From contig NQJD01000013.1 in NCBI GenBank assembly GCA_004284765.1, positions 26,415-58,414 of the forward strand: a stretch of 32,000 bases of DNA. The letters are read 5' to 3'. Below are positions 2,406 to 28,347 of the stretch, piece after piece (position 1 is the stretch's first letter; every line of letters begins with the position of its first letter). The DNA is from Candidatus Electronema aureum. GTDB taxonomy: Bacteria; Desulfobacterota; Desulfobulbia; Desulfobulbales; Desulfobulbaceae. Under the pieces are notes generated by a model. That model saw nothing but the letters and a program-made list of their open reading frames with translations, had not been told where the DNA came from and ran no database searches. A program made the position numbers and the translations under genes.

Positions 2406-3097
2406 GGAAGAATATGTTTCATATAATGACATGCTTCTTTGCCACAATTAAACAAAAGATCAAGAATCGTTACGCCATGCTTGAAATTTCCCCAAAGTTG
2501 TGTATATTCAGGGTAGCCTGCATAATCAAACCATGTCAATTTGATGTTCATATCACGGAACACCTGTTCTTCGATATAATTTTTAGCAGCTGGGCCTGAA
2601 ATATATTCAGTGCCGCCTGCCTGCACACAAAGATCAGCTAACCGTTCAGTTTTACTGTTGATCAAATTGTAATCACTTGAATGAGTGATAGCAGTTTTGA
2701 TCCCCAAGTAATGACAAATAGCTTTAATAAATTTTCGATTAAGTTCGGATAGACCACTATATGACTCGCCAAGATACAGCGGCTCAAGCCATTCAGCAAT
2801 TTCGCTAAAATGTTCTGCCCGACGATAGTTCATCATTAATTTTTTCCAATGATCTACAGCCCAGTCAGTTCCATCAATTTCAGTTTCATTTATTTTCTGA
2901 TAAAATTTACCTTTTACTATAACTGGAACTGTCATCCATTGGACACCTTGTGGTGTTTTAATTTGATTTCTATTTCGCCAGTCTCTTCGGGTAAACTGCA
3001 TGTCGTCATAAAGAATAAATTCATCAACAGCGGCAATTATATCAAAGTAGCCCTTCCAAGGAATATAATTTGATTGAATAATAGCTATTTTTTTCAT
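2402..3097 (-). CDS. WbqC-like family protein (unknown function, typical of O-antigen loci)
   Basis: ORF track 2402..3118(-), start trimmed to the ATG at 3097 ([48 protein letters not shown]). I recognise the [13 protein letters not shown] and RRDWRNRN motifs as the WbqC family signature (recollection). Confidence 0.7.
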
Positions 3098-3252
3098 ATA
3101 TTTTTTGTTGCAACGCATCGTATATGATACCGATACTGTTTGTGATAAAGTAGCTCACGTCGCGAATATTCCTCTTCAGTCCTTCTTGCGCTGTCAGCGA
3201 CAGAATTGAGGGGTAAAATTACCATGTTTCCTTCTTTGCTCCCAGTAAATAA

Positions 3253-9461: not shown

Positions 9462-9575
9462 AGAAGTTACGTAGGCTTAAAATATAACGAATTGATTTTA
9501 TTCATGAGTTTCTTTTTATGAAAAAGATAACCTGCTTGAATTATTCATTTTGTAATATTGAACTGCGTAACTCCT
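9462..9575. repeat. 114-bp MITE-like element, copy A (degenerate left TIR, intact right TIR)
   Basis: The right end tgaactgcgtaactcct (9559-9575) matches the right TIR of the 27698-27811 copy at 16 of 17 positions. The left end agaagttacgtagg resembles aggagttacgcagt. Shared internal blocks are ttgatttt(a/g)ttca, tttatg and tgtaata. The two copies have the same length. This one starts 8 nt after the trm112-like stop. Confidence 0.6.
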
Positions 9576-11111: not shown

Positions 11112-11828
11112 ATGGATTTATTAGGAAAAAAGTATATTAAAGTTTCAATCATCATCCCCGCCTATAACGAGGAAAAAACCTTAAAAACGGTAATTGATGC
11201 CGTGCAGTCAGTTAACCTGCCGTTGATCAAGGAGATTGTTGTCGTGGATGATTGTTCTACTGACAGCACCCGGCAGGTTATGGAACAACTGCGCGACGAC
11301 AACATAGTCAAGATTTTTCATGAAAAAAATCAAGGCAAAGGAGCCGCATTGCGTTCCGGTATTGCCAAAGCGACAGGTGATATTGTTCTGATTCAAGATG
11401 CAGATTTGGAATACGATCCGGCAGAATATCCCAAACTGCTCCAGCCGATTCTGGACGGCAAGGCTGACGTGGTTTATGGTTCGCGTTTTGTCGGCTCTGA
11501 AGCACACAGGGTATTGTATTTCTGGCACATGATGGGAAATCGGCTTTTGACTTTGCTCTCCAACATGTGTACTAATCTGAACTTGACCGACATGGAAACC
11601 TGCTACAAGGTCTTTCGCAAGGAGATTATTCAGAACATTAAGATTAGAGAAGATCGCTTCGGTTTTGAGCCAGAAATTACGGCAAAAGTTGCCAGAACTG
11701 GATGCCGAATTTACGAAATTGGCATTTCTTATAGCGGACGTACCTATGCCGAAGGTAAAAAGATCGGCATAAAAGACGGCTTCCGCGCTCTGTACTGTAT
11801 TATCAAATATCGTTTCCTTGCGGAATAA
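11112..11828 (+). CDS. Family 2 glycosyltransferase, soluble DPM1/polyprenol-phosphate hexose synthase-like
   Basis: ORF 11112..11828(+). Motifs are [25 protein letters not shown] and [10 protein letters not shown] (DXD). It is 238 aa with no hydrophobic helix. Confidence 0.8.
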
Positions 11829-11848: not shown

Positions 11849-12703
11849 ATGAACATTCCTGAATTTCCCATCCCCTTTGTCAAAATGAGTGGCACCGGCA
11901 ATGATTTTATCCTCATTGACCACCGCCAGCCGCTGATCGAGCCTGAATCCATGTCCGCCTTTGCCGCTGCTGTCTGCCGCCGCAAGTTTTCGGTCGGCGC
12001 GGACGGGTTGATTCTGATTGAAAATTCTGAGCAGGCTGATTTCCGCTGGCGTTTTTTCAACGCCGATGGCTCGGTTGCGGAAATGTGCGGCAACGGAGCG
12101 CGCTGCGCGGCCCGCTTCGCCTTCATGCAGGGCATTGCTCCGGCGAAAATGCGCTTTGAAACTTTAGCTGGGATCATCGAGGCGGAGGTTTCTGGTGACG
12201 AAGTAGCAGTGAAGATGACCGAGCCTCGTGATCTGCGCCTGCATCAGACCATCAGTGTTAACAACGCGCCGCTCATCATGCACAGCCTCAACACCGGTGT
12301 GCCTCATGCGGTGGTCTTTGTTGACAATATCGAAGAAACCGACGTGTGTGGCCTTGGCAGGGCGATCCGTTATCACGAAGCCTTTCAACCTGCTGGCACC
12401 AATGTCAATTTTGTCCAGAAGCGCGGCGAGGCCTTCAAGGTACGCACCTACGAACGCGGCGTGGAGGATGAAACCCTCGCCTGCGGCACCGGCTCCGCTG
12501 CCAGCGCGATCATCGCCGCCTTGTTGGGCCAAGCTGCCTCGCCCGTCGAAATTATCACCTCTGGCAACGACCGGTTGATGATTTTGTTCGACCTGAGCAA
12601 GGTTAAGGCTGGCGGAACAGGGCCGATTGTTTATAATGTTTTCCTCAAAGGCCCGGCCCGGATTATTTACGAGGGAGAACTGCGCAACGAGGCATTGCTT
12701 TAA
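11849..12703 (+). CDS. dapF: Diaminopimelate epimerase
   Basis: ORF 11849..12703(+). It has FVKMSGTGNDFILID and both catalytic Cys motifs (MCGNGARC and LACGTGS). Length is 284 aa. Confidence 0.9.
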   Translation: MNIPEFPIPFVKMSGTGNDFILIDHRQPLIEPESMSAFAAAVCRRKFSVGADGLILIENSEQADFRWRFFNADGSVAEMCGNGARCAARFAFMQGIAPAKMRFETLAGIIEAEVSGDEVAVKMTEPRDLRLHQTISVNNAPLIMHSLNTGVPHAVVFVDNIEETDVCGLGRAIRYHEAFQPAGTNVNFVQKRGEAFKVRTYERGVEDETLACGTGSAASAIIAALLGQAASPVEIITSGNDRLMILFDLSKVKAGGTGPIVYNVFLKGPARIIYEGELRNEALL

Positions 12704-12787: not shown

Positions 12788-14086
12788 ATGAATATAACAA
12801 AAAGAGATTTTTTCGTCTCAATTATTCTGTTAATTATTTCCGCTTTTTTTTTCTGTTATGTAAACTTGAGCATTAAGTCATTCGATGAATGGCATTCTTT
12901 GAAATATGCAACACCAGACAGTAAAACATATCTTGATGTTGGCAGATGGATTTTAGGTGAAAATACATTTGATAATGCAGAAAGCAGCGTTGCGATAAGA
13001 CCTTTTTTTTATCCTCTCGTTATTGTAATTTTAGATTCAATACATCCTTTAGCTGTAGCAATATTTCAATTTACTTTATGGCAGATTCAAATTTTGATGA
13101 TTTATTTTTTTTGTATTAAAGTAAGCAGATTATTTATTTTGTCAATTTTAGTCTCGGTGTTAAGTATTGGCATCCTTTCTCCTATAGGGATATCTTTACA
13201 TGCTCTCACGGAAACGTTATCATCATTTTTCATTACTTTTTCCATATTCATATTTATCTTTTTTTTGGAAAAAAATTCATACAGATATATTTATGCATAT
13301 TTATTATCGTTATCTTTTTGTTCCGCAACCAGACCATCTTATATATATGTATATATTTTTTCAATAATGATACTTTTCTTTTTTTTAATAAAAAAAAGGA
13401 AGTTTTTTTATATATGCATACTTGCAACAACATTTCTTCCGATATCATTACAATATTATGTAATGAAGAAACATTTTGATAGCTACAAATTATCTTTTAT
13501 TGATTCCTTTGCTATAAATGATTATTTTTTATCAGGACTTGAGCTGTATAAAAGAAAAGTTGAATTTGATGCTAATAGAAATTTATACATACGAATGGTT
13601 CGCGATGCGAGACGTGAATATATGGCAGAAATGATTAAGGAAAAAGGGTATGGAGAAACATCAAAAAAAGTAAAAAGTGATCTTCTTGCCAGTTTAGTTA
13701 ATTACCCTAATGAAAGTCTTCGTCAATTTAAAGACTTAATTATTGAAAATTCAATGCAGCCATCATCATTTATTACGGCTAATAAAAATTTATACATTGC
13801 TACTTTTGCTCAAAGCAAACTTCTTTTGACAATAAATATAATTTCTGCTTTATTTTTTTCTGTGATTATTTTTAATAAAAAATATTTTGCTGAAGAAATT
13901 TATGAAAAAAATATCGTATTCAGCTTGTTGATATTTTTCTGCATATATTTTACATATATTTCTACAGGGCTTACCTTCTGGCAAGGAGACAGATTTATTA
14001 TTCCTATATACTATGCAAGTATCATGTTGTTTGTGCATCAAACAAGAATGTTTTTTGCATTTATCAGAAATACAAATAAGAAATAA
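12788..14086 (+). CDS. Polytopic integral membrane protein, possibly a GT-C-type (PMT_2/ArnT-like) glycosyltransferase
   Basis: ORF 12788..14086(+), 432 aa and extremely AT-rich. It has about 10 or more hydrophobic segments. The first loop, YATPDSKTYLDVGRWILGEN, weakly recalls the acidic first-loop motif of GT-C enzymes. The functional call is tentative. Confidence 0.6.
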   Translation: MNITKRDFFVSIILLIISAFFFCYVNLSIKSFDEWHSLKYATPDSKTYLDVGRWILGENTFDNAESSVAIRPFFYPLVIVILDSIHPLAVAIFQFTLWQIQILMIYFFCIKVSRLFILSILVSVLSIGILSPIGISLHALTETLSSFFITFSIFIFIFFLEKNSYRYIYAYLLSLSFCSATRPSYIYVYIFSIMILFFFLIKKRKFFYICILATTFLPISLQYYVMKKHFDSYKLSFIDSFAINDYFLSGLELYKRKVEFDANRNLYIRMVRDARREYMAEMIKEKGYGETSKKVKSDLLASLVNYPNESLRQFKDLIIENSMQPSSFITANKNLYIATFAQSKLLLTINIISALFFSVIIFNKKYFAEEIYEKNIVFSLLIFFCIYFTYISTGLTFWQGDRFIIPIYYASIMLFVHQTRMFFAFIRNTNKK

Positions 14087-14093
14087 TATTAAA

Positions 14094-14669
14094 ATGAAAG
14101 AGCCGATCTTTGAACCTGTTTTAAGGAAAATACGTATAGGAAAAGTTATTGATGAAATCAAAAATATTCCAAGATGCAATCTTCTCGATATTGGATGCGG
14201 TTTTAACTATAGTTTTTTGTCTGCGGTGGAACAATATATCGAGCATGGGACAGGTATTGATTTTAAAGTCAATGAAATTTATTCTGAAAAAATATCAACC
14301 ATCAAGATGGTGTTAGATGAAACCTTAAACTTCAATGACTGTTCATTTGATGCTGTAACAATGCTTGCTGTTCTTGAGCATATAGACAAGCCGATACATA
14401 TATTTTCTGAAATATATCGAGTTTTAAAGCCAGGTGGAAAATTAATACTTACGGTTCCTGGAAAAAAAGCAAAGCCGTTGTTGGAATTTCTTGCTTTCAA
14501 GATAGGAATTGTTAGTAGAGCTGAAATAGAAGACCATAAAAAATATTATGATTTAGAAGAGATCAGCCAGCTCGTATTAAATATCAATGAATTTGAAATA
14601 ATAAAGCATGAGCATTTCCAGTTTGGAATGAATAATTTTTGTGTTATAAAAAAATCTATGATTAGCTGA
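14094..14669 (+). CDS. Class I SAM-dependent methyltransferase
   Basis: ORF track 14013..14669(+), trimmed to the ATG at 14094 (MKEPIFEPVLRKI), 8 nt after the upstream stop. Motif I is LLDIGCGFNY; other motifs are AVTMLAVLEHI and LKPGGKLILTVP. Confidence 0.75.
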   Translation: MKEPIFEPVLRKIRIGKVIDEIKNIPRCNLLDIGCGFNYSFLSAVEQYIEHGTGIDFKVNEIYSEKISTIKMVLDETLNFNDCSFDAVTMLAVLEHIDKPIHIFSEIYRVLKPGGKLILTVPGKKAKPLLEFLAFKIGIVSRAEIEDHKKYYDLEEISQLVLNINEFEIIKHEHFQFGMNNFCVIKKSMIS

Positions 14670-14970: not shown

Positions 14971-15861
14971 ATGACAGCAGCACAACGAATTCAGGGCGCG
15001 ATCACCGCGATTGTCACCCCGATGCGCGACGGCAGAGTTGACGAGGAAAGCCTCGTCAATCTGATCAATTTTCAGATCGACAACGGCATTCATGGCCTCG
15101 TGCCCTGCGGCACCACCGGCGAATCAGCCACCCTCAGCTTTGCCGAGCACAAGCGGGTGATCGAGCTGACCGTGAAGACCGTGGCAGGCCGGGTGCCGGT
15201 CATTGCCGGAACCGGGGCCAACAACACTCTTGAGGCCATCGAGTTGACCGAGTCGGCCAAGGACAGCGGCGCGGACGCAGTACTCTCTGTGGTGCCCTAT
15301 TACAATAAGCCGAGCCAGGAAGGGCTGTACCGGCATTTCAAGGCCATCACCGAAACGGTGGATATTCCGGTGGTGCTCTACAACGTGCCAGGCCGCACCG
15401 TCACCAATATGGCTCCGGCCACGGTCGCACGGCTGGCCGAGCTGCCCAATGTCATCGGCATTAAGGAGGCCTGCGGCTGCCTGAACCAGATTTCCGAGAT
15501 CATCCGCATCTGCCCGAAGGACTTCATTGTGCTTTCTGGCGATGACTTCACTTCCATGCCCACCGTGCTGATTGGCGGCAATGGCGTGATCTCAGTGACC
15601 TCGAACGTAGCTCCTAAAGCGATGGCCGAGCTGATGGAAGCGGCCCTGCGCGGCGATTTGGCCAAGGCCAAGGAGATTCATTACAAATTCTTCCCGCTCA
15701 TGGGCACGATGTTCTGCTATCCCAGCCCAGCTCCGGCGAAAAAGGCCGTGCATCTGATTGGCAAGATTGCCTCGCCGGAAGTGCGCCTGCCGATGACCGA
15801 GATGGACGAGCCGTCGCTGAACAAGCTGACTGCTGAGATGAAGAAGGTGGGATTGATTTGA
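14971..15861 (+). CDS. dapA: 4-hydroxy-tetrahydrodipicolinate synthase
   Basis: ORF 14971..15861(+). RBS aaggagaa precedes the ATG. Motifs are VPCGTTGES, YYNKP, LYNVPGRT and the Schiff-base Lys context NVIGIKEA. Confidence 0.9.
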   Translation: MTAAQRIQGAITAIVTPMRDGRVDEESLVNLINFQIDNGIHGLVPCGTTGESATLSFAEHKRVIELTVKTVAGRVPVIAGTGANNTLEAIELTESAKDSGADAVLSVVPYYNKPSQEGLYRHFKAITETVDIPVVLYNVPGRTVTNMAPATVARLAELPNVIGIKEACGCLNQISEIIRICPKDFIVLSGDDFTSMPTVLIGGNGVISVTSNVAPKAMAELMEAALRGDLAKAKEIHYKFFPLMGTMFCYPSPAPAKKAVHLIGKIASPEVRLPMTEMDEPSLNKLTAEMKKVGLI

Positions 15862-15917: not shown

Positions 15918-16856
15918 ATGAAGAAAAGACCGAGAATTATTCAGAAAACAAAAAGCCTTTTGCAGAAAGAAATATCATCGATATGTCCTTTCTGTGATAA
16001 TGAGGATGTCGATCATTTTCATTTTCATCATATTGATGAAAATCCAGAAAACAACGACATGCTTAACCTCTTGATGCTATGCCCTATTTGTCACTCAAAA
16101 ATTACAAAGGGCGATATAACGAGAGAAGATGTTGAACGGAAAAAGCGAGACATATCAACTAATCAAAAGGACGTTCTTTTGTTTTTTCAAGAAATAGCTC
16201 CGCTTGTATTTGACTTGATTATTTTTGGAGAACAGGAGAAGGATCGTAGCATAAATCCTTGGGTCAGCAGGCTGGAATCAAGATACAGCGAGATATCTAA
16301 CGAATTAAGAAGATTAGCTATTAAAGATGTTTCTATTCAGAAAGGATGGACTGTCTTGTTAGATGAATTGGCAAAGTCTATTGATAATTTTGTTAATAGG
16401 GAAGTTTGTCTGTATCGCGGCTTAACAGAAGACATTAAAGATGCCGTGGAAAAAGCTAAACACCTCAAGGTATCGATAATTGATCCTTTTTTCGCTTCAC
16501 AAAGGGCACCTTTAACACTTAAAAAAGATTTTGCGATGCAACTCAGGATGTTAAAAAGCCTGAATGATAGAGCGGAAATGATGCTCAACGAAGGAAAAAT
16601 TGAGGAGTTACAGGGGAAAGTCTCAGAAATAGGTCACGATTTATTGATATTGAGCATGTACAATACAGAGGATTTCCCGAAAGCTATAAAAGGAAAATTA
16701 TATAGCATTTCAAGAGAAATCCATTTAATGGAAACAAAGAGAAATAATCATTCTTTCGATAGACAGGAGTCATTCAGAAATCGACTCAATGAACTTAGCG
16801 GACAATTAAACGCGCTGGCAGTAGAACTGCCGAATGTAACGTATGCAGCAAACTGA
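15918..16856 (+). CDS. HNH endonuclease domain protein with a roughly 240-aa uncharacterised helical C-terminal region
   Basis: ORF 15918..16856(+). N-terminal HNH: CPFCDNEDVDHFHFHHIDENPENNDMLNLLMLCPICHSKI (C-x2-C ... HH ... N ... C-x2-CH). I recognise no motif in the remainder, which is Lys/Glu/Leu-rich. The gene is AT-rich relative to dapA and dapB. Confidence 0.7.
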   Translation: MKKRPRIIQKTKSLLQKEISSICPFCDNEDVDHFHFHHIDENPENNDMLNLLMLCPICHSKITKGDITREDVERKKRDISTNQKDVLLFFQEIAPLVFDLIIFGEQEKDRSINPWVSRLESRYSEISNELRRLAIKDVSIQKGWTVLLDELAKSIDNFVNREVCLYRGLTEDIKDAVEKAKHLKVSIIDPFFASQRAPLTLKKDFAMQLRMLKSLNDRAEMMLNEGKIEELQGKVSEIGHDLLILSMYNTEDFPKAIKGKLYSISREIHLMETKRNNHSFDRQESFRNRLNELSGQLNALAVELPNVTYAAN

Positions 16857-16970: not shown

Positions 16971-17783
16971 ATGACCAAAGTAATTGTAGCCGGAGCAGCC
17001 GGTCGGATGGGCCGCCGCATCTGCGACATGGTGCGGCAGCATCGCGACCTAACCTTGAGCGCGGCCTTTGAACACGCGGACAGCCCTTTTATCGGCAAGG
17101 ATGTCGGTGAAGTGGCGGGCTTCGGCGCGACCGGCGTGAAAATATCTGCGGGCTTGGAATCAGTGATTGATCAAGGCGAGGTGATTATTGATTTCACCTT
17201 CCACAAGGCCACGATGGAATTCATCAAAGTTGCGGCCAAGCATGGCCGGGCAATGGTGATTGGCACCACCGGCCTGACTGCGGAGAATATCGCAGTGCTG
17301 CGCGAGACCGCCGCAGGCCATTTCCCCTGCGTTCAGTCGCCCAACATGGCCGTGGGCGTGAACGTGCTGTTCAAGCTGGTGGAGAAAACCGCTGCCGTGC
17401 TGGGCAATGCTTATGATGTGGAGATTGTCGAGGCGCACCACCGAATGAAGAAGGATGCGCCGTCCGGCACCGCGCTCCGGCTGGGCGAAATGGCCGCTGC
17501 TGGCTTGGGCCGCAATCTGGCGGAAGTGGGCGTGTATGAGCGGCACGGCATGATCGGCGAGCGCACGGACAAGGAGATCGGCATCCAGACCATCCGGGCC
17601 GGGGATATTGTCGGCGAGCATACCGTCTATTTCGCTGGTGCGGGCGAGCGGATCGAGATCACTCATCGCGCCCACAGCCGCGACAACTTCGCACGCGGCG
17701 CGGCCTTGGCTGCGGCGTGGGTTGCGGACAAGCCCAAGGGATTGTACACCATGTTTGACGTGCTTGATCTGGGCAATTTCTAA
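16971..17783 (+). CDS. dapB: 4-hydroxy-tetrahydrodipicolinate reductase
   Basis: ORF 16971..17783(+). Motifs are KVIVAGAAGRMGRRI (the NAD(P) site) and the signature EAHHRMKKDAPSGTA. Confidence 0.9.
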   Translation: MTKVIVAGAAGRMGRRICDMVRQHRDLTLSAAFEHADSPFIGKDVGEVAGFGATGVKISAGLESVIDQGEVIIDFTFHKATMEFIKVAAKHGRAMVIGTTGLTAENIAVLRETAAGHFPCVQSPNMAVGVNVLFKLVEKTAAVLGNAYDVEIVEAHHRMKKDAPSGTALRLGEMAAAGLGRNLAEVGVYERHGMIGERTDKEIGIQTIRAGDIVGEHTVYFAGAGERIEITHRAHSRDNFARGAALAAAWVADKPKGLYTMFDVLDLGNF

Positions 17784-19458: not shown

Positions 19459-20526
19459 ATGTCTATCTTTCAGCAGGCTTTCGCCTTTTTTTTGCCCGAC
19501 GATGAAATAGCCGAGTTTGCTCCGCTGGGCAGCGGTAGAGTCAACGACACGTGGCTTGTTGCCACCAAAGCAGGCAAAAAATACGTCCTTCAGCGGCTCA
19601 ATCCAGCGGTTTTTCTTAAACCTGCCGTGGTGCAGAGCAATCTCTGCCGGGTTACCGAACATTTGCAGGCAAACCTATCCGTTGAGAGCGGTTTTTCTGT
19701 CTTCGAGGTACGTCATAGTCCGACAGGGGCAAGCGCGTGGACGGATAGCAGCGGAGCGTGGTGGCGGTTGATTTCCTATCTTGACGGCGCGGCTATTGAT
19801 GCCCTTGCTGATGCTAATCAGGCCCAAGAAATCGGGGCCGCGCTTGGCCTCTTCCATCAGTTGCTTGCCAGTTTACCTTTGCCTCCGCTGGCTGATACTC
19901 TGCCCGGCTTCCACAATACTCCGCTGTATTTGGCTAACTACGAGGCCATTTTACCGACCGATTGCCTGCCAGAAGCCGCCGATTGTCGCGATTTCATCAA
20001 TGAGCGCAGGGCAGACATGCGTTTACTCGAAGATGCCCGGCAGATAGGGAAAATCACCGAACAGACCATTCACGGCGATCCCAAGGTGGGTAATTTTCTC
20101 TTTTCGTGGGACAAAAAACGGGTGATCAGCTTGGTCGATTTGGACACAGTCAAACCCGGCCTACTGCTCCACGATCTCGGTGACTGCCTCCGCTCCTGTT
20201 GCAATCCCTTGGGCGAGGAAGTGCAGAATTTGGACGAAGTGATCTTTGATCAAGAATTGTTCGCCGCTGTGCTGGCAGGTTATCTATTCCACGCTGCTGA
20301 TTTGCTCCAACCCGGCGACTGGCAGCTGCTCGTGGATAGTGTTCGTCTGATGAGCTTGGAGCTGGGTCTGCGCTTTTACAGCGATTATCTGGCGGGCAGT
20401 CGCTATTTTAAAGCCGATCACCCGCACCAGAACCTTTTTCGTGCGAGAGTACAGTTTGCGCTGGTGCGCTCAATTGAAAATCAATATAGTGAGCTGACGG
20501 TAATTGTGAAAAACTTCAGGGCGTAA
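19459..20526 (+). CDS. APH-fold phosphotransferase (NahK / small-molecule kinase-like)
   Basis: ORF 19459..20526(+). Motifs are PLGSGRVNDTWLV, YVLQRLNPAVF, the catalytic loop HGDPKVGNFLF (HxDxxxxN) and VDLDTV. Confidence 0.7.
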   Translation: MSIFQQAFAFFLPDDEIAEFAPLGSGRVNDTWLVATKAGKKYVLQRLNPAVFLKPAVVQSNLCRVTEHLQANLSVESGFSVFEVRHSPTGASAWTDSSGAWWRLISYLDGAAIDALADANQAQEIGAALGLFHQLLASLPLPPLADTLPGFHNTPLYLANYEAILPTDCLPEAADCRDFINERRADMRLLEDARQIGKITEQTIHGDPKVGNFLFSWDKKRVISLVDLDTVKPGLLLHDLGDCLRSCCNPLGEEVQNLDEVIFDQELFAAVLAGYLFHAADLLQPGDWQLLVDSVRLMSLELGLRFYSDYLAGSRYFKADHPHQNLFRARVQFALVRSIENQYSELTVIVKNFRA

Positions 20527-20964: not shown

Positions 20965-20970
20965 ATTGAA

Positions 20971-21009
20971 AAGAGAGCAAAAGCATGATGGCTTTTGCTC
21001 TCTTTTTTT
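20971..21009 (+). terminator. Strong Rho-independent terminator
   Basis: aagagagcaaaagc-atgatg-gcttttgctctctt forms a perfect 14-bp stem whose right arm runs directly into a T tract (tctctttttttt), 7 nt after the lipoprotein stop. Confidence 0.9.
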
Positions 21010-21110
21010 ATAAAAATGGCTCTCTACTATTCTTACAACTCCTGAAATTCGTATAGAATTTGCTGGACGACACCTATATATAGCTGAAGCAGCATAAAGT
21101 GAACTTGAAT

Positions 21111-21181
21111 GTCATTCCGAGCGGAGCGAGGAATCTCCTCTTCGTCCTTGGCGTGAGATTTCTCGCTCCGCTCGAAATGAC
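21111..21181. repeat. 71-bp palindromic (REP/hairpin-like) element
   Basis: Left arm gtcattccgagcggagcgaggaatctc (21111-21137). Right arm gagatttctcgctccgctcgaaatgac (21155-21181). The arms are complementary at 25 of 27 positions, with a 17-nt spacer. I recall the GTCATTCCGAGCG.AGCGAGGAATC motif as a dispersed palindromic repeat in diverse bacteria. Confidence 0.7.
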
Positions 21182-21241
21182 AGATACGACGGTTAAAATT
21201 ATGTTGCTCTGGCTATAAATAGAGAGATAGAGTTGATTAGT

Positions 21242-22657
21242 ATGGATAATATCAAAAATCTCAAGTCAACATCTGACGGATGGCGTGGGGTTACAGCAGA
21301 TACATTTACCTATAACGAGGTAGGATTAATAGCTTCGGCTATTGCGAAGTATATCCAAGAAAAAGGGTATGCCAAAAAAATCATTATCTCCTATGACACG
21401 AGATTTCTTGGTGAAAAATTTGCACAAAAAGCGGCTCAAGTATTTAAAGTAAATGGGATTATACCATTAGTCATAAGTTACCCTATACCAACTCCATTGT
21501 TATCATTCAGAGTAAATCAACTGGGGTATCCATGCGGCATTTCCATCACAGCATCGCATAATCCATATAATCATAATGGAATTAAATTGCGCATGAATTA
21601 TGGCGGTGCTCCAACGCCTCAAATTATCAAAGAAGTTGAGTCGTTTCTGCCTTTTTCAAGTCCTGAAATCCGCACTGCCGGTGCTATCAATTTCGACAAT
21701 CCTCTAAAAGATTATGTTGAGTACATGAGATCATTAGTAGATATGGAATCTATTCATTCCAGTCAAGCTAAGATTCTTATTGATCCGATGTATGGCACTA
21801 CAGCAGGATTGCTAAAAAAAATTCTTGGAACAACATCGGTTGTTGTTGATGAAATTCATACGCATCATGATCCGTATTTCGGAGGTGTAAATCCTGAACC
21901 CCAACGTAAAACGACGTTAGAGTTGCAACAATCAGTATCTATTGGACTTTACGATTTAGGCATAGCTCATGATGGCGATGGCGACAGATTAACAGCCTGC
22001 CTGCCTGATATTGGTTATTTATCTCCGCATGATATTTCTGCGGTTCTTTTGTGGTATCTGGTCAGAAAAAGAAAATTGACTGGAAAGGTAATTGGCAGCC
22101 TTACTCTCAGCAGGAGACTGTCCAGATTGGCAGAATATTTTGGACTGGAATATGTGGAGATTCCCATAGGGTTCCACTATGCAACAGCTTTAATGCTGCA
22201 AGGAGGTGTCTTAATCGCTGCTGAGGAAAATGGCGGCATCGGGTTTGGATTTTATCTGCCGGAAAGGGATGCGACATTGGCGGCATTGATGCTCATTGAG
22301 GCTGAAGTCAAAGTCGCTGGTGGCATAGCTTCTATTTTAGAAGAAATTGGGAAAATATCGGGCAAATCTGGTTTTTATCGCATGAATATCGATCTTAATT
22401 CTAACCGAACAGAATGCTTGAAAGAACTGCGCAGCAATATCCCAAAGGAATTAACCGGGATAAAAGTCTGCAAAATTAATGATGCCGATGGGTTAAAAAT
22501 ATTTTTGACAAACGGAGATTGGGTGTGTATTCGTGTAGCTGGAACAGAAGATTTGCTCAGGATTTATGCTGAGGCGGGGGACAATGCTCTTGCCGAGCAA
22601 TTGGCCAACGAAGCTGCATGGTTGGTCAAGAAAATAGATGGCAAATTAGCGAGGTAG
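21242..22657 (+). CDS. Phosphohexomutase (phosphoglucomutase/phosphomannomutase family)
   Basis: ORF track 21233..22657(+, TTG); the ATG at 21242 is preferred. Motifs are SDGWRGV, the phosphoserine loop ISITASHNPYNHNGIKL, the Mg loop IAHDGDGDRL, the sugar loop AAEENGG and the phosphate loop RVAGTEDLLRIYAEA. Confidence 0.85.
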   Translation: MDNIKNLKSTSDGWRGVTADTFTYNEVGLIASAIAKYIQEKGYAKKIIISYDTRFLGEKFAQKAAQVFKVNGIIPLVISYPIPTPLLSFRVNQLGYPCGISITASHNPYNHNGIKLRMNYGGAPTPQIIKEVESFLPFSSPEIRTAGAINFDNPLKDYVEYMRSLVDMESIHSSQAKILIDPMYGTTAGLLKKILGTTSVVVDEIHTHHDPYFGGVNPEPQRKTTLELQQSVSIGLYDLGIAHDGDGDRLTACLPDIGYLSPHDISAVLLWYLVRKRKLTGKVIGSLTLSRRLSRLAEYFGLEYVEIPIGFHYATALMLQGGVLIAAEENGGIGFGFYLPERDATLAALMLIEAEVKVAGGIASILEEIGKISGKSGFYRMNIDLNSNRTECLKELRSNIPKELTGIKVCKINDADGLKIFLTNGDWVCIRVAGTEDLLRIYAEAGDNALAEQLANEAAWLVKKIDGKLAR

Positions 22658-22662
22658 CAGCC

Positions 22663-23796
22663 ATGTGGGAACTACAGACACCTAAAGTCATTGTCAATGG
22701 AAGGGGTTCTATTCAAAACATCAATTCGATGATGTCAAGATTTGAGATAACCCGCCCGTTAGTTGTTATTGACCGAGAGGTAAAGTTAACTGAATTTGGA
22801 GATGTTTTTTCAAGGTTGATGAATGAATATCCTTGTTTGCTCTTCTCTGAATTTTCTACAAACCCAACTACCTCTCAGATTAATTGTTGCCTTCATAATT
22901 ATGATCTGTCATTGTGTGACGGAGTTATTTCCATTGGCGGAGGCAGTGCTATAGATTTAGCCAAAGCCGTTAATTTGGTTATTTCTCATGGCGGCACAAT
23001 CGAAGACTATCTGAACGGAAAGACAATCAATGGCAAATTAAAACCTTGTATTGCCGTACCAACCACTTGCGGAGCAGGTGCGGAAAGCAGTCCCTATGCA
23101 GTTATAACAGACACTGCGTTCCTCAAGAAAAGAGGAATAAGCAGTCCGTATTTGGTACCTGATGCGGTGCTGTTAGATGCCGACTCGTTAAACTCTTTGA
23201 GCAGGCTTATGATTGCCGCTACTGGGATTGATAGTTTAACTCATGTCCTTGAATCTCATATCTCTAAAAAGGCTACACCTCTAACCCGCATCAGCAGCAG
23301 GGGGTTGCTGCTGTCATTTGGCCTGTTTCTTGAACAAGCTATTTTTAAAAAGAATGAAGCCGCCTTGGAAAACCTGCATGATATAGCGTTTACAGCGAGG
23401 CTGCTGTATCCCAGAACAGGATTATCTGTTGCTCATGCATTATCCCATCCAGTGGGAGCGCATACAAATTTGCATCATGGCATGGCTGTGGCGTTATTTT
23501 TAATAACTTCACTTCGTTTTAATAAGTCGTATTGTGCAGAGGCATTCGATGAAGCAGAAGAAGTTTTAGGTTTAAAAAGAAGAAAACTCAGCTTGTTGGA
23601 TTGGATTGCCAGAATCATCAATGAATCAGGAATAACCTCATATCTGGTTCAGCATATAAGCAAAAGTAAACTTCCATTAGAAATTATTGCTGAAGATTCA
23701 TTGCGCAGCAGCAACATAGCCTCAAACCCAAGACCAGTTGACAAATACGACATGTTGAATATCATAACCGAATCGCTGGAACAGTTGCAACGATAA
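22663..23796 (+). CDS. Iron-containing alcohol dehydrogenase / DHQS-superfamily oxidoreductase
   Basis: ORF track 22618..23796(+), trimmed to the ATG at 22663, 6 nt after the upstream stop. Motifs are GGGSAIDLAKAV and the metal ligands GIDSLTHVLESH and HALSHPVGAHTNLHHGMAVA. Confidence 0.75.
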   Translation: MWELQTPKVIVNGRGSIQNINSMMSRFEITRPLVVIDREVKLTEFGDVFSRLMNEYPCLLFSEFSTNPTTSQINCCLHNYDLSLCDGVISIGGGSAIDLAKAVNLVISHGGTIEDYLNGKTINGKLKPCIAVPTTCGAGAESSPYAVITDTAFLKKRGISSPYLVPDAVLLDADSLNSLSRLMIAATGIDSLTHVLESHISKKATPLTRISSRGLLLSFGLFLEQAIFKKNEAALENLHDIAFTARLLYPRTGLSVAHALSHPVGAHTNLHHGMAVALFLITSLRFNKSYCAEAFDEAEEVLGLKRRKLSLLDWIARIINESGITSYLVQHISKSKLPLEIIAEDSLRSSNIASNPRPVDKYDMLNIITESLEQLQR

Positions 23797-23798
23797 CG

Positions 23799-24635
23799 AT
23801 GGAGATAGAGCTGCTTGGAAAAATTCGAGATTGTTTTAAAGCGATAACTCAAGAGGTGGATAGCTATCTATCTTCTCAGAATTTGTTCGATATTCAATGT
23901 GAATATAAGGAAAATATATGCGGCTGTTTGGAGGAAGTCACAAAAATTGACAAGGGAATTGAAAGGGTATGCAAGCGCATTCTAAGCTCTCAATTTCCTG
24001 ATTTTTATATCATAGCTGAAGAGAGTGACCATGAAAAAAGAAATGGTTATGAACTTAATTCTTTTTTTGCAATAGATCCTGTTGATGGAACGTTAGAGCT
24101 GCTTAATGGCGGAACTGACTGGTCAGTTTCGCTGGCAGCCATTGCCGATAGGAAAACACAAGTTGCTATGCTGTATTTTCCTCGGAAATCAATCCTCCTT
24201 TCAGCAATACGAGGACAAGGGGTTGTGTTGAATGGTGTCAAAGTTGTATCTGAAAAAAATAATAGAAGAAATTATAAGATTGGTGTGAGTCCAAGGCAAA
24301 TTACACATTCAGCATTAAAAGAATCTTTAACGACTAGCTTCTATCAGTATGTAGAAATTCCTCATTTCACGCCAAAAATACTAGCCCTTGTTTCGGGTGA
24401 AATAGATGTCGCAGCTTATCTACCCCAAAAAAACAAAGGTGTGAGATTATGGGATTATGCTGCTGCCAGTCTCGTGCTTCACGAGTTCGGCGGAAAGTTG
24501 GAATCCTTAACTGAGGGATCATTGGATTTTGGTGGTCATGTCCTTATGCATAAGGGAGGTTGGATTGCTGCTAATGACAAATTTGACCATGCTTCGCTCG
24601 TAAACTCTCTTTTATCAGTAAATTTAGACGAATAG
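23799..24635 (+). CDS. Inositol monophosphatase-fold phosphatase (IMPase/CysQ/FBPase superfamily)
   Basis: ORF 23799..24635(+), starting 2 nt after the upstream stop. Motifs are IIAEESD, AIDPVDGTLELLNG (DPxDGT) and WDYAAASLVLHEFGG. Confidence 0.8.
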   Translation: MEIELLGKIRDCFKAITQEVDSYLSSQNLFDIQCEYKENICGCLEEVTKIDKGIERVCKRILSSQFPDFYIIAEESDHEKRNGYELNSFFAIDPVDGTLELLNGGTDWSVSLAAIADRKTQVAMLYFPRKSILLSAIRGQGVVLNGVKVVSEKNNRRNYKIGVSPRQITHSALKESLTTSFYQYVEIPHFTPKILALVSGEIDVAAYLPQKNKGVRLWDYAAASLVLHEFGGKLESLTEGSLDFGGHVLMHKGGWIAANDKFDHASLVNSLLSVNLDE

Positions 24636-24643
24636 GTAATGAA

Positions 24644-26893
24644 ATGAGCAAGAAAACAATTTTGGTCACGGGTGATGTTTGCATCGACTGGAATATTTTA
24701 ACAAATCGGTCTTCTGATCGCAATAATTTTTGGAAATCAGAGGGTGAATGGGCTTCATCAAAACCAGAAGGAGGTGCAGCGTTCCTATTGGGAAAAATAA
24801 TCGAAGAAACATGTGAAGGTGTCGCTGACACTCTCTGCAGGAAATTTAAAGAAACATATCTGAAATCCAATGAACTTGACCACCTTTATACTATTTGGAA
24901 CGAATATGACGTTGACAAAAGCAAAAATGATTCTAACAAGAAGAAAGCTATGAGGATTCAGCAGTATCTTGGTCACAAGCCACGGCGTTCCAACTATCCA
25001 TTTTCTATGGATTTAGAAGATTTGAAAAATGAATCTGATGGTAAAAATATAGAAATTATAATTATTGATGACAAGCGGTTTGGGTTTAGAGGTTCTGAAA
25101 AAGATGAAAAAAAATATATAGATCAAGACAGATATTGGCCAGACTTCTCAAATTCTCAACTAATCATTTTAAGGATGGCTCGGGATTTATGCAAGGGAGA
25201 ATTATGGCAGAATCTTATTACCACACCTGAATACAGCAATAAGTTAATCACGGTGTTCACAGCAACGGATTTACGACATGCAGAGGTGAGAGTCAGCAGA
25301 GAACTTTCGTGGGAGCAAACGATTTCAGATGTTATGAAAGCTCTTACTTCAAAGGAGTTAGAGAGTACTCGTAACTGTAAATATGTCTTAGTGTCTTTTG
25401 ATGCGGCAGGAGTATTAATTTGGTGTCCCAAAAAGTCTACATTGGATGTAGTTTATACTCCTAATTTGATGGAAGGGCAAGCTCAGTTAACTATTGAAGG
25501 TCATATCAATGGGCATACATATTGTCTTATCAGCGCACTTGCCTACTACATAGCAGAGGCAGATAATCCTGATTATGAAAATTTAACGACAATATTGAAT
25601 AACTCAGCATTCATAGGGATTCACACTATGAACGAATTGTATTCAAAAGGCTTTTTTATGGTAAGAAAAAATAATAATGAGAATCCGCTATATTTGTCAA
25701 TTGACTCTCCAGTTAATGTGGTGAAGGATGCTGTTATTACCGCATTCAAGGCATTGAAAGAATCTTCGACAACAGATAAAGATAAGAAGGATGAAGCTGT
25801 TAAGGCATGGGAGAAAAGTTACTCAGCTCTTGCTAAAATTAACGAACTGTCAATAGATAAAGTTTTATCGAAAGATTTCAGTATATTAGACCATCTCTTG
25901 GTAAAAGTAAATGTAAAGGATATTCTTGAGAAAGGAATTGATGAAGCCATGAAGGGTGTTCCTGTTTGTAAGTTCAACAACTTGATTGTTATTGATAGGG
26001 AAGAAATAGAAAGTTTACATAGTATACGTAACATAATACTTGAATATGATCAAAAACGAAAAAACAATTTCAGTATTCAACCGCTCTCCTTAGCCGTCTT
26101 CGGCCCTCCTGGCTCAGGAAAATCATTTGCCGTGAAACAGCTTGCAGAATATCTTACAAAATCTCATACGTTAAAGACCGAACATGAAAAAATAGAGTTT
26201 AATCTATCGCAATTTTCAGATCCAAAAGAAATCATAGAAGCATTTCATCAAGTCCGGGATGCGGTTTTGAGCGGAAAACTCCCCTTCGTATTTTGGGATG
26301 AATTTGACTCTGAATTTGAAGGCAAAAAATTAGGCTGGCTCAAATATTTTCTTGCACCAATGCAGGATGGTACATTCCAAGATGGGCAAATTACGCACCC
26401 TATTGGTTCATGTATTTTCGTTTTTGCCGGAGGCACCTACCATACCTTTTCTGATTTTGTAAACCCATCAAAAAAAGAAGATGGCGACAAAAACAGCAAA
26501 GAGCTACCAGAAAATGATGATAAAAGCAGCAAGAAGCCAGACTTCATGAGCAGACTCAAGGGGCACTTAACCATTAAGGGGATCAATAAAGATATCCGGG
26601 GAAATCATTATAAAATCCGTCGAGCAATTTTGCTTAGAGGGCTTCTGGAAAAGCACGCAAAAACTATCTGGACTAAGAATTTTAAGCAACCTAATATCCA
26701 TCATAGTGTTATCAATGCGTTTATGGATATTGATGAATATAAGAATGGTGCACGGTCCATGGAAGCGATAATCGTCATGAGCCGTTTATCCGGCGAGATG
26801 GAGTTCACAGCCTCTGCTCTTCCACCGAACAGCCAGTTAGATATTCATGTAGACGGCGAGAAGTTTATCAAACTTGCCTATGGCAGCATGTAA
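24644..26893 (+). CDS. 749-aa fusion: ribokinase/HldE-like N-terminal region lacking the GAGD motif, plus a C-terminal AAA+ ATPase
   Basis: ORF 24644..26893(+). The N-terminus is ILVTGDVCIDWNIL...PEGGAAFLLGKII (PfkB-like start). The expected GAGD position reads INGHTYCLISALAYYI. AAA+ core: Walker A LAVFGPPGSGKSFAV (about 26102-26125), Walker B FVFWDEFDS and CIFVFAGGT, then a Lys/Asp-rich insert and a helical lid (PDFMSRLKG, GARSMEAII). Confidence 0.65.
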   Translation: MSKKTILVTGDVCIDWNILTNRSSDRNNFWKSEGEWASSKPEGGAAFLLGKIIEETCEGVADTLCRKFKETYLKSNELDHLYTIWNEYDVDKSKNDSNKKKAMRIQQYLGHKPRRSNYPFSMDLEDLKNESDGKNIEIIIIDDKRFGFRGSEKDEKKYIDQDRYWPDFSNSQLIILRMARDLCKGELWQNLITTPEYSNKLITVFTATDLRHAEVRVSRELSWEQTISDVMKALTSKELESTRNCKYVLVSFDAAGVLIWCPKKSTLDVVYTPNLMEGQAQLTIEGHINGHTYCLISALAYYIAEADNPDYENLTTILNNSAFIGIHTMNELYSKGFFMVRKNNNENPLYLSIDSPVNVVKDAVITAFKALKESSTTDKDKKDEAVKAWEKSYSALAKINELSIDKVLSKDFSILDHLLVKVNVKDILEKGIDEAMKGVPVCKFNNLIVIDREEIESLHSIRNIILEYDQKRKNNFSIQPLSLAVFGPPGSGKSFAVKQLAEYLTKSHTLKTEHEKIEFNLSQFSDPKEIIEAFHQVRDAVLSGKLPFVFWDEFDSEFEGKKLGWLKYFLAPMQDGTFQDGQITHPIGSCIFVFAGGTYHTFSDFVNPSKKEDGDKNSKELPENDDKSSKKPDFMSRLKGHLTIKGINKDIRGNHYKIRRAILLRGLLEKHAKTIWTKNFKQPNIHHSVINAFMDIDEYKNGARSMEAIIVMSRLSGEMEFTASALPPNSQLDIHVDGEKFIKLAYGSM

Positions 26894-26964
26894 CTAATGA
26901 AGACAAGTCAACGTTGCTAAATACATCCAGTAAAATCAGCTCAACAGATGGTCATAAAAGAATA

Positions 26965-27696
26965 ATGCCGCTCACGGCAATTATTCTGGCTGGAGGCAAA
27001 CAAACTCGACTGCGAGACATAGGTCTTTCCTGTCCAAAAGCCTTAGCAGAGTTATCAGGAACGCCTCTGCTCAACTATCAGATTCGGCAGCTTCAACAAG
27101 TTGCAACGTCCATTATTATTGCCGGAGGACGGTTGTCAGATATTTTTTACAGGATATATGCAACTTCTTCTCCTGTTAAAATCTCGCCAGACCCAGTAAT
27201 TGGAACAGGAGTGGCATTATTGGAGGCTGCGAAAATAATTACTGATGATCATCTCATCATCTGCAATGCGGATACGGTCAACGATCTTCCATTGCAGGAT
27301 ATTGTTGATCATTATTTTCTTCACTACGCTTCTTTGTGCATGATCGTCCTGACAAGGCGTGAAGGCGTGCAAAATTCAGGTGCATTTGCTGTAGATGCAA
27401 GCAACCGGGTAATCCGATCCTATGAAGATAGAAACCTTGGATCTCCGCCACACCCTGAAGCTGTATGGCATGGAGCAAGCACCGGTGTGATAATGATGCC
27501 ACGCAGATTGCTGCGCAATGTTCACCCGTTTCAATCGCATTCACTGGAGCAAGATATACTGCCTGAACTTATCTGGCGTGGCAAAGTGTATGCGTTTGAT
27601 AATGGCACTAGTTTTTCATTAGATATCGGAACACCAGAACGGTTCGGCCAGTTTGCTAAAATCAAAAAGGACGTATTGGAATTATTCCAATACTGA
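26965..27696 (+). CDS. Sugar-phosphate nucleotidyltransferase (NTP_transferase family)
   Basis: ORF track 26914..27696(+, TTG). The ATG at 26965 gives MPLTAIILAGGKQTRLRDIGLSCPKALAELSGTPLLNYQI, a G-x-G-x-R-L type NTP loop with PKAL. The start choice is uncertain. Confidence 0.75.
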   Translation: MPLTAIILAGGKQTRLRDIGLSCPKALAELSGTPLLNYQIRQLQQVATSIIIAGGRLSDIFYRIYATSSPVKISPDPVIGTGVALLEAAKIITDDHLIICNADTVNDLPLQDIVDHYFLHYASLCMIVLTRREGVQNSGAFAVDASNRVIRSYEDRNLGSPPHPEAVWHGASTGVIMMPRRLLRNVHPFQSHSLEQDILPELIWRGKVYAFDNGTSFSLDIGTPERFGQFAKIKKDVLELFQY

Positions 27697-27697
27697 T

Positions 27698-27811
27698 AGG
27701 AGTTACGCAGTTGAATTTGCAACTCGTTGATTTTGTTCAACTGGCGGTTTATGCAACCAAAATTCAACTCACTGTAATAATTGAATTTCAGATTTCAACT
27801 GCGTAACTCCT
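27698..27811. repeat. 114-bp MITE-like element, copy B, with perfect 17-bp terminal inverted repeats
   Basis: aggagttacgcagttga (27698-27714) and tcaactgcgtaactcct (27795-27811) are exact reverse complements. The AT-rich core carries reiterated ttcaact/ttgaat submotifs. It starts 2 nt after the nucleotidyltransferase stop and is homologous to 9462-9575. Confidence 0.75.
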
Positions 27812-27930
27812 AACTGAATATACTAATTAATGTCTGTAGTTGTCAGTGCAGAACTTCTTTTTTAAAAATTGTTTGGTGCTGGGAAAAATACCGTAAAGTT
27901 TGTCGGCTGGCAACGGAACCTATCTGGACA

Positions 27931-27990: not shown

Positions 27991-28347
27991 TGGTGGAGGT
28001 GCCGGGAGTTGAACCCGGGTCCGAAAATACTCCCCTCTCGTCTCTACATGCTTAGTTCCAAGTTAAATCCCGCCTTCAGCTCTCACTTGGAACAGAGGAT
28101 TGCTGAAAGCCGACCTGCTTGATCTCGCCAAGGGGCCGCAGATACTCCCGATGACTATCCCGAAGAGTCGACGCTTTGCTCCAGCTTTACGGGCGCGGGC
28201 TGGGAAAGCGGCACAGCAGACTAAGCTGCTAATGCGTAGTTATAATCGTCTGCGATTATATTTAAGTTCCGCCGTTTTTACGAGCTGACAGAAGGCTCGG
28301 CATGCAACGATGAGCTTGTATATCCCCGTCGAATCCGTTTCACCCCC
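27991..28347 (-). ncRNA. ssrA: tmRNA (SsrA), 357 nt
   Basis: Minus-strand 5' end: GGGGGTGAAACGGATTCGACGGGG. The 3' end is GGGTTCAACTCCCGGCACCTCCACCA (T-arm plus acceptor). The acceptor has the G3-U70 Ala identity pair. The tag ORF GCA GAC GAT TAT AAC TAC GCA TTA GCA GCT TAG (28221-28253) encodes ADDYNYALAA. It lies directly downstream of smpB. Confidence 0.95.

Follow-up and report, generated by a model that had tools for sequence, protein, structure and literature searches.

A five-gene operon joining sugar-nucleotide enzymes to a kinase-fold AAA+ protein in Candidatus Electronema aureum

Introduction

Genes for TIR, SLATT, STAND and RelA/SpoT-SLOG proteins are characteristic of conflict systems that signal through nucleotides. 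Conflict systems of the nucleotide-centric kind, which use SLOG sensors and SLATT effectors, were reportedly set out by Burroughs et al. in 2015. NTP-dependent STAND/TPR conflict systems have been described in multicellular prokaryotes (PMC7159879), and RyR domains of phages have been shown to bind or to hydrolyse 2'/3' cyclic ADP-ribose (cADPR), which TIR domains produce (preprints PMC13232231 and doi 10.64898/2026.06.04.730250). Here we analyse a 32,000-nucleotide stretch of the genome of Candidatus Electronema aureum (contig NQJD01000013.1; hereafter the window, whose own coordinates are used throughout) that carries an operon of five genes, four for enzymes of sugar-phosphate and nucleotide-sugar type and one for a 749-aa protein that joins a kinase-fold domain to an AAA+ module. 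We propose, with a probability of roughly 0.4, that the product of the operon is a sugar linked to a nucleotide, that the pseudokinase domain on a conflict-type AAA+ motor reads this molecule, and that the operon represents a rare enzyme-linked branch of a large conflict-associated ATPase family, a branch in which an operon-encoded nucleotide-sugar route stands in for RyR/TIR-type ADP-ribose (ADPR) signalling. Taken singly, the enzymes are ordinary members of their families; undescribed are their combination, the RyR-less pseudokinase-AAA+ protein and the parent family.

The genes, domains and motifs of the operon are as follows.
21242-22657, plus strand: alpha-D-phosphohexomutase, 471 aa (deposited start; alternative upstream TTG at 21233)
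22663-23796, plus strand: group III iron-type alcohol dehydrogenase (Fe-ADH), 377 aa
23799-24635, plus strand: phosphatase of the inositol monophosphatase (IMPase) superfamily, 278 aa
24644-26893, plus strand: 749-aa two-module protein, RyR-less branch of a large uncharacterised ATPase family
24644-25678, plus strand: ribokinase/PfkB-fold domain of the 749-aa protein (residues 1-345; register inferred manually)
25994-26893, plus strand: AAA+ module of the 749-aa protein (residues ~451-749)
26102-26125, plus strand: Walker A motif GPPGSGKS (residues 487-494 of the 749-aa protein)
26288-26308, plus strand: Walker B motif VFWDEFD (residues 549-555 of the 749-aa protein)
26965-27696, plus strand: sugar-1-phosphate nucleotidyltransferase (NTase), 243 aa (alternative TTG start at 26914)

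An original prediction, made from the letters of the window and a list of its open reading frames (ORFs), had singled out this block as five tightly packed genes of low G+C content. An ORF check and the gene calls deposited for the chromosome of this species (OW818638.1) place all five plus-strand ORFs where they had been predicted, with intergenic gaps of 5, 2, 8 and then 71 nt (the last being 20 nt with the TTG start at 26914). Composition agrees as well, given that the G+C content at third codon positions (GC3) is 0.31-0.39 in the five genes, compared with 0.58-0.76 in the genes upstream (dapA, dapB, comM-like, APH-like and lipoprotein genes) and 0.42-0.50 in those downstream. All six catalytic signatures that had been read in four of the proteins (TASHNP, DGDGDR, GGGSAIDLAK, DPVDGT, WDYAAA and ILAGGKQTRL) could be confirmed, and the orthologous clusters described below show no variation in their core residues.

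Conservation of the operon

The same five genes recur in the same order on independent contigs, with ATPase identities of 79% in locus L006, 61% in L001 and L002, 51% in L003-L005 (a Deltaproteobacteria metagenome-assembled genome (MAG) from Lake Pavin) and 41% in L007. At the junctions of these clusters the genes are separated by 0-10 nt or share overlapping stop and start codons. The full order is found in four other lineages and the flanks are unrelated in each; the five genes are accordingly co-conserved as a unit, and their adjacency, which the original prediction had left open to chance, is not accidental.

Several of the flanks are of a mobile or conflict type. In L007, an ABC-3C conflict system (SMEK_N-CTD10, MC6 and DUF2326; positions 297-3185) lies immediately upstream of the five-gene cluster, and its DUF2326 protein matches PADLOC PDC-M68B and LmuB. 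The L003 cluster is flanked by a Gp49/HTH toxin-antitoxin pair followed by integrase, RadC and ArdC genes, that of L006 by a GT4 glycosyltransferase gene and a PIN toxin-antitoxin pair, and that of L001 by purL. At 3-1812, a further contig (L180) has a gene for an NTase of 40% identity and, after it, the beginning of a mutase gene, an order unlike that of the window; a fragment of a conjugative relaxase (TraA/MobF-like) gene precedes them, and no ATPase was detected on this 1.8-kb contig. The proposed defence or mobile-island setting is supported both by what surrounds the members of the ATPase family and by what surrounds the orthologous clusters, and the block is one horizontally mobile operon.

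Reduced forms of the cluster also occur. L012 (38% ATPase identity) has the order FeADH-IMPase-ATPase-NTase, and L013 (36%) has PhyH-ATPase-NTase adjoining a Uma2 nuclease gene. As these two forms have only the RyR-less ATPase and the NTase in common, this pair constitutes the constant core. In a neighbour-joining tree without support values, the six ATPases that are accompanied by three or four of the window-type enzymes form one clade, and the ATPase of the PhyH/NTase form falls in the sister group of this enzyme-linked clade.

The 749-aa protein

By sequence, the 749-aa protein shows one marginal Pfam match, to AAA (22.8 bits against a cut-off of 21.2), and nothing else. An AlphaFold2 model built from 40 homologues (mean confidence, pLDDT, 87; pTM 0.87) is more informative. 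When compared with the PDB by Foldseek, residues ~1-345 match human ribokinase, the heptokinase HldA and a Methanocaldococcus jannaschii nucleoside kinase (E ~1e-8; TM-score ~0.5, normalised by target), placing the domain in the ribokinase fold, whereas the C-terminal part matches ClpA, ClpC, ClpB, Hsp104, Skd3 and Lon. Both Walker motifs (A and B) are invariant in the family, as are G702, R704 and S705, and with its GAR-type sensor-2 motif the module belongs to the Clp/Hsp100/Lon-like AAA+ proteins. The predicted fusion of a kinase-like domain to an AAA+ ATPase is borne out by these comparisons, which recover a PfkB fold and an AAA+ module; the active site of the former appears to be non-canonical.

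The kinase relationship of the N-terminal domain is visible in the modelled structure only. Pfam, NCBIfam and a family profile run against PDB sequences all failed to recognise it as PfkB (PF00294), and an hhalign comparison with Escherichia coli RbsK was likewise null. The identity of the RbsK query as a ribokinase was confirmed by a homologue search, which returned near-identical ribokinases only and yielded no diverse PfkB profile. The active-site register was set by hand against E. coli ribokinase, from the secondary structure of the model and the invariant columns of the family. In this manual register the domain keeps a pair of Asp residues at the N-terminal end as well as the GG motif; the position of the catalytic Asp of GAGD is taken by G290-H291 in the window protein and by Tyr (G-Y) in most of the family, and that of the Glu of NXXE by an invariant Arg. 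Given these replacements and retentions, the domain is probably a pseudokinase in which the pockets for the sugar and for the nucleotide or phosphate are kept.

The four enzymes

All four remaining proteins fall into established superfamilies, and none of them reaches an NCBIfam equivalog cut-off. The mutase has four PGM/PMM Pfam domains above cut-off and belongs to the alpha-D-phosphohexomutase superfamily; its TASHNP, DGDGDR, EENGG and RxAGTE loops are intact, with motifs invariant in five orthologues, and its best PDB relative is a Thermus 'phosphomannomutase' structure (1tuo, 203 bits). It misses the GlmM, PGM and PMM/PGM equivalogs, the best being archaeal GlmM (235 bits against a cut-off of 439). 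The Fe-ADH matches the Pfam families Fe-ADH and ADH_Fe_C (130.9 and 78.1 bits) and conserves the GGGS NAD(P) motif and the Asp/His metal-ligand motifs. Its best equivalog is ErcA (194 against 550 bits), with 4-hydroxybutyrate dehydrogenase and FucO also below threshold, and judged by its sequence it is a generic group III enzyme. The phosphatase (Inositol_P, 94 bits; EE, DPVDGT and WDYAA motifs invariant) belongs to the IMPase/FBPase/CysQ superfamily and stands about equally far from SuhB (62 bits), CysQ (62) and HisN (57), all below the NCBIfam cut-offs.

The NTase matches Pfam NTP_transferase above cut-off and is a member of the sugar-1-phosphate nucleotidyltransferases. Its AlphaFold2 model (pLDDT 87) gives TM-scores of 0.62-0.83 (the larger of the two normalised values) over the 50 PDB matches listed, all of which are sugar-1-phosphate or inositol-1-phosphate nucleotidyltransferases (GMPPB, VTC1, MurU, HddC, RmlA and IPCT), with GDP-mannose pyrophosphorylase, HddC and MurU closest; on these three and RmlA the model superposes with scores of ~0.70-0.83. 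The active-site loop reads GGKQTRL, with Gln instead of the second Gly, and LDIGTPER is conserved. The protein is isolated in sequence, with 16 detectable homologues, nine of them at clade level; beyond the clade, the nearest outgroups are NTase-HAD-IIIA fusions at ~25% identity. From the enzyme types, the predicted chemistry is therefore the conversion of a sugar-6-phosphate to a sugar-1-phosphate and on to a nucleoside diphosphate (NDP)-sugar, together with one redox step and one dephosphorylation step.

The parent ATPase family

The window ATPase aligns with hundreds of members of a PfkB-like-AAA+-RyR family at 30-36% identity over 99% of its length, that is, as full-length homologues. An exhaustive HMMER scan puts the family at 1,905 clusters at 50% identity (E<=1e-30), and about three of the listed cluster representatives belong to the enzyme clade. 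Typical members have ~870 aa and a C-terminal RyR domain, or RyR is encoded by the next gene; a Pfam search for RyR (PF02026) found it in none of the five window proteins. The family is distributed over Chloroflexota, Acidobacteriota, Planctomycetota, Bacillota, methanogens and cable bacteria, is present on one IMG/VR contig (an RyR-type member) and three plasmids, and has 'RyR domain-containing protein' as its sole annotation. No match was found in 50,697 phage records, which argues that the family is host-encoded; with the single IMG/VR contig carrying an RyR-type member, we rejected a phage origin.

Of the 600 pattern-matched stretches listed for species-representative genomes, 508 encode relatives, and gene contexts were taken from the best 80 loci. 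In 79 of these the ATPase is RyR-fused and the four enzymes are absent within 10 kb; the exception, with such enzymes inside that distance, is the Lake Pavin MAG. A metagenome scan returned, among the matches listed, RyR-type members only and no further loci of the enzyme clade. What accompanies the RyR-type ATPases instead has a conflict-system character. A TIR-domain gene lies immediately downstream in 10 of 55 loci and upstream in 3 of 51, nSTAND1/NACHT is the upstream gene in 6 of 51, and other partners include standalone RyR proteins, RelA_SpoT+TPR+SLOG proteins and TrkA_N. The commonest downstream gene (46 of 124) belongs to a ~190-aa family without a Pfam match (for example, L018:7061-7651, L028:12605-13186, L020:4157-6391 and L027:12584-14314), the domain of which is also fused, in longer proteins, to SLATT/DUF4231 two-transmembrane effector domains. 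Going by its sequence neighbourhoods, this ~190-aa domain may be the usual partner of the RyR-type ATPases in an undescribed two-gene system.

On a Methylobacterium plasmid (L183; NZ_CP107533.1, 1-8691) an RyR-type member lies ~1.4 kb from the gene of a very large SIR2-family protein, an NAD-linked neighbour of conflict type, with a transposase gene and an HTH gene in between.

Boundaries and surroundings of the block

The block is bounded on both sides by repeat or hairpin elements, and a tmRNA gene lies beyond its right edge.
20969-21006, plus strand: terminator-like hairpin (16-bp perfect stem and T-run) that ends the upstream lipoprotein gene; left boundary
21110-21182, no strand: 73-bp near-perfect palindrome (28-nt arms, 93% complementary) in the 5' leader of the operon
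27690-27819, no strand: inverted-repeat element resembling a miniature inverted-repeat transposable element (MITE), with 26-nt arms at 27690-27715 and 27794-27819; right boundary
27991-28347, minus strand: tmRNA (ssrA), 3' end towards the block; a neighbour, not a component

These elements had largely been foreseen. The strong left terminator, earlier given as 20971-21009, has a perfect 16-bp stem and a T-run at 20969-21006, and the ssrA 3' end does lie on the right side of the block. The palindrome and the right-hand terminal-inverted-repeat element both exist and differ in size from the prediction, the former spanning 73 rather than 71 bp and the latter ~130 rather than 114 bp. The palindrome is probably an element of the repetitive extragenic palindromic (REP) or MITE type; it may also be an operator or an RNA structure, and neither a second copy in the window nor a copy in the orthologous clusters was found. 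The 17-nt end motif of the right-edge inverted repeat, GGAGTTACGCAGTTGAA, recurs once in the window with one mismatch (9558-9574), which suggests a dispersed family of MITE-like repeats in the genome. Position at the ssrA 3' end and atypical composition fit a possible ssrA island.

Elsewhere in the window, the core genes dapF (11849-12703), dapA (14971-15861) and dapB (16971-17783), with GC3 ~0.75, are interrupted by very AT-rich inserts. One of these (12788-14669; G+C 0.26-0.30) holds a 432-aa ORF without a Pfam match and a class I methyltransferase gene, and another (15918-16856; G+C 0.37) a 312-aa ORF with a weak HNH match. As such inserts separate the dap genes, the five-gene block is one of several low-GC inserts in the region. 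Glycan-type genes (for two GT2 glycosyltransferases, a WbqC-like protein and methyltransferases) are found at 198-3118 and 11112-11828, 10-20 kb away from the block. We also considered a pairing of AmgK/MurU type between the APH-fold kinase gene two genes upstream (19459-20526) and the MurU-resembling NTase, and rejected it because a terminator lies in between and the APH gene is missing from all orthologous clusters.

Searches for described systems

No system model of PADLOC-DB 2.0 matches any of the five proteins significantly: the ATPase gives matches at the level of the P-loop only (mad8 and PDC-S01, E>1e-3), and the enzymes give none. A catalogued defence system was rejected on the basis of PADLOC scans of the five proteins, the RyR-type relatives and their neighbours, which gave nothing specific, and a characterised pathway on the basis of the missed equivalog cut-offs. 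Neither the ATPase family nor the operon was found in the literature searched, which included papers on conflict systems and on NAD/ADPR; the texts of PMC7159879 and PMC8195603 mention neither a PfkB-like-AAA+-RyR protein nor a sugar-nucleotide operon. With PADLOC, Pfam and NCBIfam all null in this respect, the earlier statement that the set can be assigned to no described pathway or defence system stands.

Discussion

The mechanism that we favour can be envisioned as follows. The mutase would supply a sugar-1-phosphate that the NTase would turn into an NDP-sugar-type molecule, and the Fe-ADH and the IMPase-type phosphatase would modify or recycle its sugar- or alditol-phosphate part. The nucleotide-linked small molecule that the operon would thus provide for itself would be the ligand of the catalytically degenerate kinase domain, where its binding would gate the AAA+ motor, such that the sugar-nucleotide pathway would fill the place held in relatives by TIR-derived ADP-ribose signals and the RyR domain. 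The output would most likely be conflict-related (defence or an abortive response), with the motor using ATP to remodel a target protein. Counted in favour of such a role are the ABC-3C system of L007, the toxin-antitoxin and integrase genes of L003, the PIN pair of L006, the relaxase fragment of L180, and the GC3 and ssrA position of the window block. A more far-reaching version, which we regard as unlikely, is that this is the first bacterial immune-type pathway with a dedicated sugar nucleotide as messenger (an NDP-sugar or NDP-alditol, built de novo), in which a ribokinase-derived pseudokinase would read the messenger and switch a Clp-like AAA+ effector, and which would have derived from TIR/ADPR-RyR-coupled relatives by a change of signal chemistry.

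Several points weigh against the favoured proposal as a whole. In L179, the flanks of which are 97-98% nucleotide-identical to those of L006, exactly the ATPase gene is exchanged for 3.45 kb in a clean cassette swap (L179 3057-6508 against L006 3656-5974, the latter carrying the gene of a 754-aa ATPase); the cassette holds two small ORFs, a 239-aa ORF and the gene of a 559-aa B12-binding radical-SAM enzyme with sub-cut-off resemblance to BchE, HpnR and PhpK, and the IMPase gene of this locus is frameshifted. The swap indicates that the enzymes can exist without the ATPase. In both L006 and L179, a GT4 glycosyltransferase gene follows the NTase gene, which suggests use of the NDP-sugar in glycosylation; the original statement that no glycosyltransferase is attached therefore holds for the window operon but not for its closest relatives. 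This GT4 protein scores 25.5 bits against the 'GT4-conflict' profile, narrowly below the cut-off of 26, and within NCBIfam it most resembles BshA and MshA. The five genes include neither an infection sensor nor an obvious toxic effector, PADLOC models gave nothing specific for the window operon or for the RyR-type relatives, and the defence association of the wider family, read from immediate neighbours only, is guilt by association. Sensing of the product by the AAA+ protein is putative, and the kinase catalytic residues appear to be lost according to a manual register rather than a superposition. As for mobility, an integrase gene is found neither inside the window block nor beside it (the closest one is several kb off, beyond ssrA), and no ssrA-derived, att-like direct repeat longer than 10 nt was found around it.

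The main alternative, a real contender that we nevertheless hold to be somewhat doubtful, is an ordinary though undescribed biosynthetic operon for an NDP-sugar or NDP-alditol, which would serve a glycoside, a compatible solute or an envelope glycan and have no conflict function; the 749-aa protein would then be the pathway kinase, or an AAA+ activase or chaperone of one of the enzymes. All four enzymes are of standard sugar-phosphate and nucleotide-sugar types with intact active sites, the set of a kinase fold, a phosphatase and an NTase has its counterpart in NDP-heptose synthesis (with matches to HldA and HddC), and the nearest NTase outgroups are the HAD-IIIA fusions mentioned above. The GT4 protein resembles sucrose-phosphate synthase in addition to BshA and MshA, and a radical-SAM tailoring enzyme can occupy the ATPase slot; cassette exchanges of this kind are a typical feature of glycan or natural-product loci that diversify. 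However, a pathway kinase is difficult to reconcile with a PfkB-like domain that carries no PfkB signal at the sequence level and apparently misses the GAGD Asp and NXXE residues. Furthermore, the ~1,900-cluster family, in the contexts read, has none of the four window-type enzymes nearby, its partners being of TIR, SLATT, STAND or RyR type; flippase, polymerase and transporter genes are absent, and a glycosyltransferase gene is missing from most copies; and no enzyme reaches an NCBIfam equivalog.

Alternatively, and to our minds quite improbably, the enzymes could be the effector arm, in which case an AAA+-triggered futile sugar-nucleotide cycle would drain NTPs or sugar phosphates and arrest the infected cell. 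Such logic would be akin to that of known nucleotide-depleting defences, and it would suit the conflict-type context of the ATPase family, an operon without any other effector, an NTase that consumes NTP and an IMPase whose relatives include nucleotide phosphatases (CysQ and NADP phosphatase). Yet four separate enzymes are an elaborate route to pool depletion, nothing points to regulation that would couple the ATPase with the enzymes, and the GT4 neighbour and the radical-SAM swap fit the formation of a product better. Accidental adjacency of five unrelated genes in an AT-rich patch, conceivable in a genome with many low-GC inserts between core genes, is of negligible probability and is refuted by the recurrence of the five-gene order on independent contigs, given that the gene order and its tight or overlapping junctions are retained in clusters whose ATPase identity is as low as 41% and whose flanks differ, and that the closest nine of the 16 detectable NTase homologues track the cluster.

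If the favoured reading of a sugar nucleotide sensed by a pseudokinase-AAA+ protein is true, the ~1,900-cluster 'RyR domain-containing' family would gain a functional frame, that of a pseudokinase-gated AAA+ motor in nucleotide-signalling conflict systems, at a time when RyR domains have just been shown to bind TIR-made cADPR signals. It would also mean that the signalling chemistry of conflict systems can be replaced by a sugar-nucleotide route, widening the small-molecule repertoire of immunity, and the compact operon of five genes would lend itself to reconstitution in vitro. Even under the metabolic alternative, the operon would define an unassigned NDP-sugar pathway with an unprecedented kinase-fold-AAA+ component.

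Comparison with known systems

The closest biosynthetic parallel is NDP-heptose synthesis (GmhA, HldA/HddA, GmhB and HldC/HddC), which likewise brings together a kinase-fold protein, a phosphatase and a sugar-1-phosphate NTase. The PfkB-type HldA is among the fold matches of the N-terminal domain and HddC among the closest structures and profiles of the NTase, and this comparison, drawn in the original prediction, is apt, as the NTase has the sugar-1-phosphate NTase fold near GDP-mannose pyrophosphorylase, HddC and MurU. The differences are equally clear. The window operon has no GmhA and neither a SIS nor a HAD protein, its phosphatase being of the IMPase type; its kinase-fold domain, joined to an AAA+ ATPase, appears to be without the usual catalytic motif, an Fe-ADH and a phosphohexomutase come in addition, and equivalog cut-offs are missed widely (HddC, 44 against 300 bits).

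Routes to cytidine diphosphate (CDP)-alditols, CDP-inositol and phosphonate-type products pair a dehydrogenase with a cytidylyltransferase (for example, TarJ/TarI, IPCT and FomC/Fom1/Fom3). The window operon resembles these in having a reductase and a nucleotidyltransferase together, with IPCT among the fold matches of the NTase, and the B12-radical-SAM enzyme of L179 recalls Fom3 or PhpK acting on nucleotide-linked substrates. It differs in that phosphoenolpyruvate mutase, MIPS and DIPPS are absent, the alcohol dehydrogenase is a generic group III enzyme and the similarity stays at the family level.

With the Clp/Hsp100 unfoldases (ClpA/B/C D2, Skd3 and Lon), the 749-aa protein shares the fold, the Walker A and B motifs and the GAR-type sensor-2; unlike them, it has a single AAA+ module with an N-terminal PfkB-fold domain and marginal Pfam AAA scores, and neither a protease partner nor a known adaptor domain.

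The Thoeris and other TIR-ADPR systems, together with the RyR readers (RyDEP and RyR Tad), are related to the operon through its parent family, which has RyR domains and frequent TIR neighbours, and through a proposed common logic, in which a nucleotide-derived small molecule would be read by a dedicated domain. However, the window operon has no TIR, RyR or known Thoeris effector (TIR genes occur next to the RyR-type relatives only), its putative signal would derive from NTP and sugar-phosphate rather than NAD+, and the published work on RyR concerns phage anti-defence proteins and not this host ATPase. The likeness extends to the SLOG/SLATT and STAND/TPR conflict systems, given that SLATT, SLOG, RelA/SpoT, nSTAND, TIR and TPR genes are found near the RyR-type relatives and that, as in the STAND/TPR systems of multicellular prokaryotes, the host of the window operon is a multicellular filament.

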